A DNA stretch of 64,000 bases, from positions 236,344,001 to 236,408,000 of the forward strand of contig OZ024740.1 in NCBI GenBank assembly GCA_964016885.1, given 5' to 3'. The position numbers were made by a program, and so were the translations under genes. The notes beneath the pieces were generated by a model. It was not told the DNA's origin. It did not search any database and was given only the letters and a program-made list of their open reading frames with translations. Shown here in pieces: positions 27,604 to 60,077 of this stretch (the first letter of the stretch is position 1; the number at the start of each line of letters is the position of its first letter). Origin of the DNA: Eledone cirrhosa. Lineage: Eukaryota.

Positions 27604-28112
27604 ATAACAAGGTATCGTTTAAGGTAATCCAGCTAGAGGTTATGAGTACTCTGTATTGAGGATAGTTTTAACATACAGCATTGTTTGACTCAACAAGAAG
27701 TTTCCTTAGTCAGGTGGCCGGTTTAAGAAAGTTCCTAAGTAGGCAGTTCTTGAAGTAATAAATAGCAAAAGAATGAAGAATGACATGGTCAGCTGTACAA
27801 TAGGGTTTATTTACAGTATTAACAATTGTTTCATTAGTCCAGTGTGTCTAAAAGTTGCTGATTGTTAGAAGTTATGTCACTCGACCTTAGTTACAGCTGA
27901 TACCTGACCAATTGTCAGAATACTGATATACTGATATGGGTATATGAATATCAGTATTCTGATAATTTGGTCAGGTATCGGCTGTAACTAAGATCGAGTG
28001 ACATAACTTCTAACAATCAGCAACTTTTAGACACAATGGACTAATGAAACAATTGTTAATACTGTAAATAAACCCTATTGTACAGCTGACCATGTCATTC
28101 TTCATTCTTTTG
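27601..28112 (-). mobile_element. Fold-back hammerhead element: about 164-bp arms plus 165-bp tail
   Basis: 27766-27929 matches the reverse complement of 27948-28112. Tail 27601-27765 is homologous to 59387-59490. Confidence 0.88.
27952..28064 (+). ncRNA. Hammerhead-like variant with long stem-II loop (mirror at 27814-27925 on -)
   Basis: CAGTATT-CTGATAA-T-TTGGTC...GACTAA-T-GAAAC-AATT-GTT-AATACTG. G8 is replaced by A. Confidence 0.55.
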
Positions 28113-28127
28113 ATATATATATATATA

Positions 28128-28822
28128 TATAATGGCGGCGAAGATTCGAAACTGAATCTGAGCTTTCCCGCCTCTGGGACAAGCCGTGGTAACTTGTTTA
28201 CGCTCAAGAGACTAACCCCTTGGGAGAAGCTAAACACAGGTCAGAGGTGTTTACGCCTGACAGAAAATAGGTCAGAGGATATATCCAACTTTCTGACTTG
28301 TTTACCCTTGGTAAACTAATCCCTTGGAAGACTAACCAAAGTTCAGAGGACTAACCAAAGTTCAACTCTTATAAATACAGGAGTTGTTTACACCCCAACA
28401 GAAAAGAAGTGATATACAGACAAGACAAGTCGCATTTACAAGCTCTCGTCACAAAAAAACCAGTCTGTCACTTATTCTCACCTTCCTGGCTGATCGCTGA
28501 CTCCTGCAATACAAATAAGTAAATATACTGATATGCACACACGCATTCATAGTGAGTTCAGCATTTGTACACGCACCATTCATTTCTGTTTACACCTATT
28601 ATAATCTTATTCTGTGATAGTTGAATTTACGTGGCTCGAAGAGCCACCAAATATTTTGTGTCATTGATTTTATCATTCAATATTCAAATTGAATATTGTT
28701 ATGATAAAATAAACTTTGTAACAACACAATCCTGGTATTTTTCTTTACATCAAAACCACCATACTAACAGTTACATCCATCCGTCCACTTATCGTTACAA
28801 CCACACACAATATTCCGTTACA
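28128..28822 (+). mobile_element. Solo Gypsy LTR inserted in (TA)n
   Basis: Homologous to the reverse complement of 15810-16541. Ends TATAATGG...CCGTTACA. Confidence 0.85.
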
Positions 28823-29989
28823 TATATATATATATATATATATATATATATATATATATATATATATATATATATATATATATATGTATATATATTTACA
28901 AAAATAGTATTATTCTTTTGACCACTCCTAAATTCAATTTACAGTATTCTTAACTCTTTATACTCATTTTTTTTCGCCACAAAATTTAATGTCAAAACCT
29001 CTCAACAACAGTGGACTGATTGATGGATTTTGTTCTGATCCTTGTCCAGACTAATCTCATACCTATATCTAGCAGGTAGATGAGCTAAGGCAATCATCAT
29101 AATCAACATCAGCAGAAGCAGCACTATCACCTTAGAGGATGGACTGAGTGCTTTTTGTGATGGCACTAGCCATATAGAATAAAAGTGTTCTGCTTAAAAC
29201 ATAAAAAAAACACCAGCAGAGAATTTGAACCTATGCTCTATGAGTAGCTGGTTGAAAACTTTATCTGCTTGACTACCATGCTTGCTATTGGACAATTGAT
29301 ATAATGTCATAGTACTGGTATGATGTTATAATACTGATAATATTTAAAAGATATGATATTGCCAATATTATAGAGCTGGTAGTCTATGATAGTACAGATC
29401 TAATTTTACAGAATATTAATTTCTGTTATGGCAGTTATATCATGTGATATATCTGATTCAGCATTACATGTTTGATATAATAATATGCTAATATAGTAAT
29501 ATGAAGTGATAAACTGATGTTATATGAACGAATTGATGCTGCATGGTGCAAAATGGCGTTATATGAGCGAACAGATATCATGTTACTATACTGATATTGT
29601 TCAATAGAATTAATGTTAAATAGGACAGCTTATATTATGTTATAGAGCCTACATGTGTGCAGTTATGATAGCTTCTTGTAAATGAATGATATATATATAT
29701 GGTTCCACTGATTTAATTAATGCTGTAAATATTCAAGGAACACTGTAATGACTCACATAGGTAGTAAAAGATACTTACAGATTGGCTAGCTGTATTGAAA
29801 ATAGGAGTTTTCTTTCTTATGAATGGTTGGTTGTATAACATAGATATTAGATAAGGAAGGATAGATAACATAAATATGAGGTAGTATTATTTTAGATATT
29901 ATAATAGAAGAGACCAAATGGTGTATGTGTTGGTTGGGGGTAGGATGGTATATGACAGTTAATATAAAGGACAAAGCTAGATGTATATA

Positions 29990-30670
29990 TGGGATAACAG
30001 GCAAACAAACAGGTAGGAAAAACTATGTATGCAGTAGATGTACAGGGAAAGTTGGCAGTAGTAATCGCAGTGATAAACACATTTTTCCAATGCAGGTGGG
30101 TTCTATGGAAGTGATTGATAGCTTCCGGTACCTAGGTTAGATTAGCATGGGAAGGGGGGTGTTCCGAGGCCATAGTATCTAGAATAAGGATGGGTTGGAA
30201 GAAGTTTAGGGAGCTGCTTCCTCTGTTGACTAAGAAGTGAGACATGGGCAGCAACTGCAGAAGATATGCGACGGCTGGAGAGAAATGAAGCATGTATGCT
30301 CCGTTGGATCTGCAATGCCAATGTGCGTGAACGACCAAGCATGGACGAGTTGAGAAAGAAACTGGGTATAAGAGGGATAAGTTGTGGTGTGCAGGAGAGA
30401 AGACTGAGATGGTATGGACATGTGATGTGCATGGAGGATGACCGCTGGGTAAGTAAGTGCCAAGAAATCCCAGTAGAAGGAAGATGCAGTAGAGGTAGAC
30501 CACAAAAAATATGGGCGGAGGTGGTGAGAGCAGACCTCAGATCGCTGAAACCCACCGAGGAGATGACGAAGGACCGTGACAAGTGGAGTGATGCTGTGCT
30601 GAATAGGACCCGTCTAACCCTTGCAAGCAGGGAAAAGTGGACGTAAAATGATGATGATGATGATGATGAT
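29990..30670 (+). mobile_element. RTE family A 3' fragment
   Basis: SFRYLG and QERRLRWYGHV...RGRP. (GAT)n tail. Confidence 0.92.
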
Positions 30671-31053
30671 ATATATATCCCGCCGGGGTTAACTTTGCCT
30701 TTCATCCTTACAGGGTCGATAGAATAAAGTACCAGTAATACACTGGGATAATTGCTGGCCTTGTGCCAAAAGTAGAAACAATTATATATATTTTCACTAA
30801 CTCTGACAGTTGGCAGGTAAGGAGTATACAGTACTGATGAAGGGTAATAACCCAGAAACATTAGTGTTTGCTATTCTGCTTATATGACAACACAAGAGCA
30901 AGAATGATGGGGTCTTTATACTGACATGGCTTAAGAGGCTGTTTGCATAATTACAAACGAATCGAATATTATTATTAATATTCGAAAAATTCAGATTTAC
31001 ATTTCTTGTATTCAGCTATATAGAGCGATAAAAATGTTTGTTAGTTATACATA

Positions 31054-58377: not shown

Positions 58378-59212
58378 ATCATCATCATCATAACTGTTTT
58401 ACATCCGTTCTTCCATGCTAGCATGGGTTAGATGGGTTGTCCTGTTGTGGGCAGTGTCTGGTCAGCTGACCATGCCTTGCTCATACAGGAACTGATTTTG
58501 GCTTGATTTCTACAGCTGGATGCCCTTCCTAACACCAACCTCATTTACAGTGAGTGCTGGGTGCTTTTTTCCGTGGTGCCTACACATCCACTTTACAGTG
58601 TGGGCTCAGTGCTTTTTTGCCGTGGCACCTCCACAACCACTTTGCAGTGGGTGGGGAGGGGGGCATATTGTCTATATGCTTCAGCTTGTACCAATGGGAG
58701 GTCGGGTACTCTGTATTACAGCGTGACGCCAGAGGTCACGGTCGTGTGTCATCACCTTTGAGAGGTGTAATTGGGTAAGGTCGGCTTTTATCACCTCATC
58801 CCAGGTCTTCTTGGGTCTCCCCACTCCGCCGTTTCCATTGACCTCTAGTGCTCTGCACCTTTTTATGCAGCTGTCAGCCTTCATACGCATCACATGCCCA
58901 TACCAACGCAACCGCCTCTCCTGCACACAGCATTTGATTCCTCTTATGCTCAGTCTCTCTCTCAATTCATTTATGCTTTGCCGTTTGTGTATATTACTAT
59001 TACACATCCATTGGAGCATGCAGGCTTCGTTTCTTTCTAATCTACGTAAGTCTTCCACCTTCAGCGCCCAGGTCTCACTACCATGTAACATTGGTGTTCG
59101 GATACACGCATCATACAGTGTGCCTTTCATTTTGAGGGAGAAGCCTTTTGCAGCTAGCAGTGGCAGTAGTCTTTGAACTTCTTCCATCCCCTTCTTACCC
59201 TAGTTATTGTAC
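58378..59212 (-). mobile_element. RTE family B 3' fragment
   Basis: LHGSETWALKVEDL...QERRLRWYGHV...GRPKKTW. Confidence 0.93.
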
Positions 59213-59229
59213 TTTCATATATACATATA

Positions 59230-59492
59230 ATTGAAAAAGTGGAGAATAACATGGTCAACAGTACAAAAAAGGGGATTTATTTACAGCCTAACAATTGTTT
59301 CATTGATAAAGATGTCTAAAAATTGCTGAACACTAGAAGCAGTGCCACTCAATTTTAAATACAATGTTAGCTCGATCAGATCTTCAGAAACTCTTGTTGA
59401 GTCAAACAACGTTGTACGCTAAAACTATCCAAAATAAGAAGTATTCACAACCTCTAACTGGATTACCTATTACGATATTTTGTTATCCTTTA
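59230..59492. mobile_element. Collapsed fold-back element (antisense arm joined to sense tail), same family as 27601
   Basis: 59230-59390 is homologous to 27766-27920. 59387-59490 is homologous to the reverse complement of 27601-27704. Confidence 0.8.
59285..59392 (-). ncRNA. Hammerhead variant with canonical core and long stem-II loop
   Basis: Reverse complement: AGTTT-CTGAAGA-T-CTGAT...ATCAA-T-GAAAC-AATT-GTT-AGGCT. Confidence 0.6.
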
Positions 59493-59505
59493 TAAATATA
59501 TATAT

Positions 59506-60077
59506 ATAAATCAGGAAAGAAGAGTAACTGGTTTTCTATACAAAAAAGGTTTTTAATCTCATTGCTGACAATTGTTTCTCTGAACTGGTAGGTCTAGAGA
59601 TCGCTACCCGCTTGTTTTCACGTCATGTGATTATTTCAAATAATTTATTGCTAGCATTGTTAGTATTGCTGTTATTGTTCTGATTGAATGCCATTACTAC
59701 TATATATAGTAGCCATGCCTGTATATTCCTTTCATTCTCACAAGCTCCGATGAATTGACTGGTTACAACTATGTATTGGTGAACGAATGACGTGAAAACA
59801 AGCGGGTAGCGATCTCTAGACCTACCAGTTCAGAGAAACAATTGTCAGCAATGAGATTAAAAACCTTTTTTGTATAGCAAACCGTGTCACTCTTCTTTCC
59901 TGATTTATCATTACTCCAAGTGTTAACAACATAGAAATTACCGCGTACTCACAGCATCACTATGGAAACGCCTTGTTGTGTCAAACTTAGCCAAGCGTTG
60001 ATATCATCCACTACTCAGAATATCCTAACTGGACTACACTTAAGTGGACTACCTATAACAATAATCTGTTACCCCGT
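59506..60077 (+). mobile_element. Fold-back hammerhead element: about 120-bp arms, 160-bp spacer, 170-bp tail
   Basis: 59506-59626 matches the reverse complement of 59787-59908. (TA)n flanks. Confidence 0.88.
59737..59855 (+). ncRNA. Hammerhead variant (U4>C) with long stem-II loop
   Basis: CTCA-CAA-GCT-CCGATGA-A-TTGACTGGT...ACCAGTTCAG-A-GAAAC-AATT-GTC-AGC-AA-TGAG. Confidence 0.6.

Follow-up and report, generated by a model that had tools for sequence, protein, structure and literature searches.

In Penelope-like retroelements (PLEs) of the Hydra clade, hammerhead ribozymes of the type I layout lie near the 3' end of the element and combine a self-complementary stem III with, in many cases, a mismatched 10.1/11.1 pair (Craig et al. 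2021, PMC8557442), and minimal hammerheads with a palindromic helix III have been described in the pseudo-long terminal repeats (pLTRs) of PLEs (Cervera and De la Pena 2014, PMC4209133). Here, we analyse a 64,000-nt stretch of the Eledone cirrhosa genome (assembly GCA_964016885.1, contig OZ024740.1, positions 236,344,001 to 236,408,000; hereafter the window, in whose own numbering coordinates are given), for which a preliminary description had proposed an atypical 'split' class of hammerhead, set apart by a stem II insertion, a palindromic stem III and a mismatched 10.1/11.1 pair. The hammerhead-bearing repeats number thousands of copies in this 3-Gb genome and are best understood, with good though not full confidence, as type I hammerheads in the terminal repeats of Hydra-type PLEs, together with one non-coding tandem repeat, which likely cut slowly and best as pairs joined through stem III, and in which the long stem II is folded as a hairpin with a likely second role, for example in protein binding. 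The findings do not establish a new ribozyme class; of the three oddities that had been flagged, only the long folded stem II appears to be new.

The published relatives, as far as the portions of the sources drawn on here describe them, resemble the present motifs in different respects. Besides the layout, the self-complementary stem III and the mismatch, the Hydra-clade elements share the TA-run targets and the protein motifs; their loop II, however, measures 3-10 nt, compared with a folded stem II region of 49-97 nt here, and their rows in file S2 of PMC8557442 contain neither U4C nor U3-A8 cores nor A.A, C.A or A.G mismatches, all of which we see. Common to the minimal PLE hammerheads and those described here are the pLTR location, the palindromic helix III, a larger-than-usual helix II, the U3-A8 variant and opposite-strand pairs. 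These minimal ribozymes, which cleave weakly and need dimers, differ in that G10.1-C11.1 is conserved, A9 is followed by a bulge and helix II has 7-8 bp, and no long arm is described in the parts of PMC4209133 considered. Axolotl HHR_Amex2 and the animal non-LTR retrozymes (PMC7229834; bioRxiv 10.64898/2026.07.22.740005) share U.U, a 2-bp helix III with a tetraloop and tandem non-coding units; the portions of these two sources considered describe no long helix II, and circular RNA has been shown there. The corresponding family here is E. Within PMC8557442, a long loop II of 35 and 29 nt was flagged as non-canonical in PLE-X1_sMoe and PLE-X1_sTam of spike mosses (file S2), and core halves 35-50 nt apart were flagged as deviating in 'HHR_half_core' Naiads; these elements belong to other clades and have shorter gaps, and the relevant parts of that paper describe no covariation or conserved arm for them.

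Long-arm hammerheads in the window and across the genome

The long motifs of the window fall into four families, A, B, D and E (Table 1), with a stretch of 49-81 nt between A9 and G12. Every stem pair named in the preliminary description could be located in window copies, including the combination of GTATT/AATAC with TCGGA/TCTGA, which, however, belongs to family D at 11341-11450 (+), outside the interval 27814..59855 to which it had been assigned. The mismatches described for the first stem II position were likewise recovered, with U.U in family A, A.A in B and C.A in E. The supposedly constant GAAAC-AATT-GTY does not hold for family E, whose stem III is CTAATTAG.

That such motifs should arise by chance pairing in AT-rich repeat DNA might be thought conceivable in a window abounding in microsatellites and fold-back repeats. 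This explanation has virtually no probability, as it is refuted by shuffle controls, by the fixed position of the motifs behind an open reading frame (ORF) and by compensatory changes on internal branches (see below): GAAACAATTGTY matches seven times in the window, against a mean of 0.05 in 100 shuffles, and a scanner for long motifs found five in the window and none in any of 40 block shuffles. The window motifs are confirmed as real hammerhead motifs.

Across the 3.0 Gb of the surveyed genome, a sequence-only pattern yielded 13,601 matches, compared with 76 for the reversed control. The first 30 of these loci comprised 16 true long motifs, nine short hammerheads of 20 nt whose upstream core is spurious, two loci that form an inverted pair within an 11-nt family, and three others. 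A first look at the individual families returned 1,522 candidates for A, 1,921 for B, 401 for D and 1,773 for E, of which 40 were scored per family; the best matches of B, D and E are 98-100% identical. As had been anticipated, standard descriptors miss these motifs, at least in the case of Rfam: a scan of the window (E up to 1) listed no long motif, its sole hammerhead match (33078-33124) scoring 27.6 bits versus a gathering score of 34. More generally, hammerhead searches that limit loop II, or that require CUGA together with G10.1-C11.1, will miss them, which here amounts to roughly 7,000 copies for one palindrome alone (a rough extrapolation from 16/30 of 13,601).

Compensatory changes between subfamilies

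Having homologous arms, A and B were linked into one group of 90 sequences. From this clade, 38 members, with at most six per subfamily plus one window copy, were aligned by sequence with MAFFT (alignment A1), leaving out rows with a stem I of less than 2 bp and five copies with internal deletions. In this alignment, 82% of the cells are paired, compared with 25-44% in slid controls, and 15 of the 31 pairs have changed on both sides. A tree-aware joint test on internal branches counted five double changes in stems I and II where 0.77 were expected (0/400), while in the long arm pairing was kept in a fraction of 0.61 of the changes, versus 0.42 (4/400). Terminal branches gave no significant excess for stems I and II or for the arm, as expected for decay after insertion, and RNAalifold predicted arm helices only from alignment A1, without stems I and II. 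Compensatory change between subfamilies supports helices I and II around the core. The covariation suspected in the preliminary description thus stands in the joint test on stems, but not at the level of single pairs, to which we return below.

The carriers are Penelope-like elements with Hydra-clade protein motifs

Upstream of families A, B, D, D2 (the sister of D) and N90 (a 90-nt family) lie reverse transcriptase ORFs or fragments with a GIY-YIG endonuclease at their C terminus, the hammerhead motifs following about 370-1000 nt downstream of the endonuclease. The ORFs of L122, L129, L130, L262 and L276 contain RWK, DKT, a CxCX5C linker, CxxC before E and CxH after N, the set of features that defines the Hydra clade (PMC8557442, section 11). 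Locus L268 shows a motif-ORF-motif layout with a period of 3,046 nt. Copies sit in TA runs and form head-to-head pairs, with one copy inverted and 5'-truncated and a tail on one side only, an arrangement known from PMC8557442 and PMC11167929. The window itself retains no fragment of an ORF; the element end in locus L031, which is matched by the left arm of the family A pair, sits downstream of a GIY-YIG endonuclease fragment. Judged by their sequences, the carriers are PLEs with Hydra-clade protein motifs, and two of their families, D and D2, look recently active, given their stop-free Hydra-type ORFs of 801 and 766 codons (L262:517-2919 and L267:1685-3982 (-)). The inverted pairs of the window are insertion debris; in a transcript reading through such a pair, each ribozyme would pair with its own antisense copy, and cleavage would probably not occur.

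Within its reach, the scanner detected no motif for five further endonuclease lineages (L278-L281, L283). The same genome also contains Penelope-like ORFs of other clades, at L291:3921-6000 (-), with a Neptune-like linker, and at L130:5757-7244 (+). A link between family J and the Neptune-like ORF in L291 was considered and rejected, other repeats and TA runs lying between the two.

Mismatch and palindrome occur without the long arm

In alignment A1, 10.1/11.1 is unpaired in 36 of 37 rows, which departs from the usual R10.1-Y11.1 rule. As the mismatch is also present in hammerheads of this genome with stem II regions of 11, 14 and 20 nt, it is not tied to the long arm. Among distinct motifs in the retrieved DNA, a set biased by the queries, it was found in 117 of 123 motifs of 56-110 nt; in motifs of up to 26 nt its share was 22/36, some of these being 9.1 bulges. 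Stem III occurs as the palindromes CAAUUG, CUAAUUAG, CGAUCG, CGGCCG, CACGUG and CAGCUG, with an imperfect CGGUCG in family D2; within family F it varies yet remains palindromic (CAATTG six times, CGATCG twice, CGGCCG once). The very short helix III with a palindromic loop, by which dimer-type PLE hammerheads are recognized, is thus present here.

Both traits have precedents. A palindromic stem III is a known hallmark of Penelope-element hammerheads (PMC4209133, PMC6765202), and 15 of the 26 rows for the Hydra clade in file S2 of PMC8557442 have U.U or U.C at 10.1/11.1. With U.U at the base of helix II and a 2-bp helix III closed by a tetraloop, axolotl HHR_Amex2 cleaved to 22% within an hour in monomeric form, and far more efficiently when dimeric (PMC7229834). 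A distinct 'split' class, in which insertion, mismatch and palindrome would form one mechanism, the arm for example replacing the contact between loops I and II, would account for the mismatch in nearly all long motifs of our query-biased set. It is nevertheless very improbable, as mismatch and palindrome are found without the arm both here and in the published Hydra table, U.U occurs in eight of 27 short metagenome motifs, and at least two long motifs (L289, L197) carry G10.1-C11.1. Since mismatch and palindrome are already in print, the three traits proposed in the preliminary description do not delimit a separate class; what appears to be new is the long conserved stem II.

A long, folded stem II

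Across families, the long stem II regions measure 49-97 nt. The arm forms a long, irregular hairpin that leads from stem II through an asymmetric loop into a helix of 7-9 bp, and from there through a small internal loop into a short helix capped by a terminal loop. In most families the additional sequence continues helix II as an unbroken hairpin, while F and G are predicted to branch. As it is a continuous base-paired extension of stem II, and not an interruption, the term 'split' is misleading. The discontinuous CLEC2 hammerhead of Martick et al. 2008, an mRNA ribozyme, is said to have its core halves set far apart by a long insertion in loop I, and thus outside helix II, unlike the paired stem II extension seen here in a retroelement. 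Single-sequence z-scores of the arms range from +0.1 (window copy of B) to -5.6, with an overlong slice used for the D2 row. Several unpaired arm columns are invariant in alignment A1, and a motif of the form U-Y-G-R-N-U ... A-G-C-R surrounds the small internal loop in nine of the 14 representatives of families, D, D2, N90 and H among them, by a pattern that was written after inspecting the families and has a shuffle frequency of 0.01-0.08 in each.

In a quick tree that left out redundant family D loci, a single clade (Shimodaira-Hasegawa-like approximate likelihood ratio test, SH-aLRT, 99) unites the endonucleases of A5, B, D, D2 and N90, and nearly all motifs behind them have arms of 72-90 nt, the short motifs obtained from two rows being probably nested. 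The arms of J (61-63 nt), F (95-97 nt) and G (94 nt) align to those of this clade no better than shuffles, and the internal-loop motif is absent from J, F, G and E (49 nt), suggesting that long arms may have arisen more than once. Of 78 metagenome loci picked by protein, 30 had a sense-strand motif, compared with six on the antisense control; these loci provided 27 distinct short motifs of 10-25 nt and one weak long match. With short motifs in these metagenome relatives, the long arm looks lineage-specific, while mismatch and palindrome look clade-wide. In the literature searched, with partial coverage, we found no description of a structured stem II of 50-100 nt in animal PLE hammerheads.

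Is the arm functional at all? It is a real possibility, though not the one we favour, that it represents neutral baggage, a hairpin grown at loop II since the core tolerates any stem II length, with pairing kept only to avoid disturbing the core. Such a view, which agrees with our preferred explanation on cleavage and differs on the arm, draws on the unrelated sequences and lengths of the long arms and on the fact that related elements elsewhere manage with 10-25 nt, but leaves the recurrent internal loop, post hoc as its pattern is, and the invariant unpaired columns to be accounted for.

Core variants as family traits

G5, A6, A9, GAAA and U16.1 are invariant in all 38 rows of alignment A1. 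Two deviations elsewhere in the core had been described as mutations of individual copies. The first, G8A, exists, but is located at 27964 instead of 27952 and is carried by both arms of the 27.9-kb pair, which both fail the type I core consensus (C3 with A8). Thirty family A cores, from a search that favours query-like copies, read CTGATGA and CTGACGA ten times each, CTGACAA five times, CTGATAA twice and otherwise in three cases, a spread with which an origin of G8A in CpG decay fits; the two 27.9-kb copies are probably dead. The second, U4C, is found at position 59748, not 59737, and is no lesion but a family trait, being the main state of family B and common in A2, A4, A5 and one short family.

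Family D has the core UUGAAAA in 25 of 30 loci that were picked by protein alone, the pattern finding no core in the other five, and its sister D2 has the same core. Here both partners of the tertiary 3-8 pair have changed, across a 72-nt gap. Two metagenome loci (L307, L315) have short hammerheads with a U3-A8 core and U.U behind Hydra-like ORFs, so that the same core swap exists outside this genome. U10.1-U11.1, U3-A8 and U4C have been reported as natural hammerhead variants, of which U4C reduces in vitro activity (PMC3088659). The young families, 98-100% identical, constitute a natural series with short and long arms, U4C, U3-A8 and several mismatches on one scaffold, which eases the testing of hammerhead function in Penelope elements.

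Cleavage, and what speaks against it

By analogy with known relatives, these hammerheads would cleave slowly after GUH, and two palindromic stem IIIs would pair into a dimer that aids cleavage, the duplex predicted for ACAAUUGU having -6.4 kcal/mol. Tandem transcripts would be processed into unit-length or circular RNA. The long arm might, speculatively, serve to bind the element's protein.

Several observations weigh against this picture. Only one of the 100 listed copies of B and one of the 100 listed copies of E, the latter a microhomology deletion, have their 5' end at the predicted cut; genomic copies run through the intact motif, so that the RNA that was copied must have been uncut or re-ligated. 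A Poseidon element could insert in vitro without hammerhead cleavage, and the part of that study considered reports no RNA ends at the cut site (PMC11167929), and the activity-lowering U4C is common in several subfamilies here. Regarding the arm, double changes are borderline (3 versus 0.92; 25/400), and support for its structure is inflated, since the structure was read from the same alignment A1. A per-pair R-scape-like G-test (average product correction, tree null) found nothing at E<0.05; five of 31 pairs reached p<0.05, with about 18 effective sequences. As to the carriers, the Hydra assignment is based on protein motifs, the endonuclease tree having taken in this genome's copies only, a Pfam scan of three element proteins named no domain, and no ORF could be linked to families E, F, G, H and J.

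One could therefore suppose that the fold is kept mainly as a landmark for protein binding or priming near the RNA 3' end, with cleavage vestigial or very slow, as the spread of U4C, the lack of a 5'-end pile-up at the cut in B and E, the Poseidon result and the recurrent internal-loop motif of the arm would all allow. We consider this distinctly unlikely: G5, A6, A9 and GAAA are invariant in alignment A1, and the double change to U3-A8 and the preserved palindromes are what selection on catalysis predicts.

The 5' ends of copies cluster just upstream of stem I, at a distance of up to 14 nt in about 29 of 78 copies of A1 and about 10 of the 100 listed for B, as counted by eye; those within the stem III side are only 1-2 of the 100 listed in B and in E. 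Such a cluster might reflect transcription that starts within the terminal repeat, or the point at which the reverse transcriptase drops off. Going further, one Hydra-type lineage might have added a conserved stem II domain of 70-90 nt whose internal-loop motif binds the element's own reverse transcriptase-endonuclease or docks on stem I, a switch that would couple self-cleavage to template choice and leave the excess of 5' ends upstream of stem I as its footprint; this idea we regard as doubtful. A search of sequencing runs with family B listed no RNA run that contains it; contigs from four runs (three organisms) cover parts of family B, with no piece spanning the whole.

Family E as a retrozyme

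Family E is a non-coding repeat whose 518-nt units, each with its own type I hammerhead, follow one another in tandem two or three times; it is the only family with same-strand tandem copies in the window. Its 3' flank pattern has 1,888 exact matches. Going by this layout, family E can be classed as a retrozyme, and its tandem non-coding units with one type I hammerhead each fit the animal non-LTR class. Elsewhere in the genome, a tandem array with a 311-nt unit, a 14-nt hammerhead and a CGCG palindrome (L264:32-700; C2, about 403.7165 Mb) is probably another retrozyme.

Features of the window

The coordinates of the hammerhead-bearing features are collected in Table 1. For the A5 copy ending at 59392, we had considered that its stem I strand AGTTT might be a junction artefact; this was rejected, as subfamily A5 shows the stem to be genuine.

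Table 1. Hammerhead motifs and the repeat copies that carry them in the 64,000-nt window.
Feature	Position	Strand	Details
Family D, inverted truncated partner	11188-11331	-	
Family D, element end	11341..11642	+	core UUGAAAA (U3-A8) at 11352-11358; U.U; 72 nt; predicted cut after 11442
Family A, element end, left arm with long one-sided tail	27606..27927	-	matches the element end in L031
Family A, left-arm hammerhead	27814-27925	-	core CUGACAA, G8A; 79-nt stem II region
Family A, right arm, inverted 5'-truncated copy with short end	27950..28113	+	adjoins TA run
Family A, right-arm hammerhead	27952-28064	+	core 27959-27965, A8 at 27964; stem II region 27966-28045 (80 nt between A9 and G12); stem I CAGTATT/AATACTG; stem II TTGGTC/GACTAA; U.U; GAAACAATTGTT at 28046-28057; predicted cut after 28057
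Short hammerhead	30830..30872	+	14-nt stem II region; A.A; near-palindromic stem III; mismatch without long arm
Short hammerhead	33079..33123	+	G10.1-C11.1; sole hammerhead listed by Rfam in the window (E 0.014, below gathering score)
Hammerhead of a separate family	33641..33711	-	36-nt stem II region; A10.1-U11.1; stem III UGCGCA
Family E, tandem unit	40206..41113	-	non-coding, 518 nt; outer limits read by eye
Family E, hammerheads	40383-40458 and 40901-40976	-	49 nt; C.A; stem III CTAATTAG (RNA CUAAUUAG)
Family E, inverted truncated copy	around 41018-41113	+	
Subfamily A5, older copy	59217..59395	-	joined to inverted tail piece at 59394-59508
Subfamily A5, hammerhead	59285-59392	-	stem I AGTTT/AGGCT; 79 nt; U.U; older relative of the family A pair
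Family B, left arm	59498..59623	-	interrupted within the long stem II; without 5' core
Family B, right arm	59636..59908	+	hammerhead 59744-59849; core CCGAUGA, U4C at 59748; stem I GCT/AGC; stem II TTGACTGGT/ACCAGTTCAG; A.A; 81-nt stem II region; predicted cut after 59846

Two further hammerhead types were observed in the window. A short fold-back at 18764-18886 has a hammerhead on each strand, with a 31-nt stem II region, stem III UAUAUA and a bulged A after A9, and belongs to another family. At 56204-56239 (+) lies a minimal hammerhead with a 13-nt stem II region and an insert of 2 nt in stem III, a type known from metazoan PLEs.

TA microsatellites abound in the window, as do fragments of long interspersed nuclear elements (LINEs). 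The latter, which we take to be RTE-like, are abundant on both strands and include endonuclease and reverse transcriptase pieces (4671-5350, 12154-13494, 30142-31547, 39273-40194, 46641-49149, 53404-54993 and 58681-59199). A 281-nt repeat that starts with a weak tRNA-like match occurs three times (27291-27571, 43272-43552 and 56744-57024) and is probably a short interspersed nuclear element (SINE). The window ends in a 49-nt tandem satellite (61221-64000; 56.7 copies, 93% matches), the + strand of which is without G in 62001-64000.

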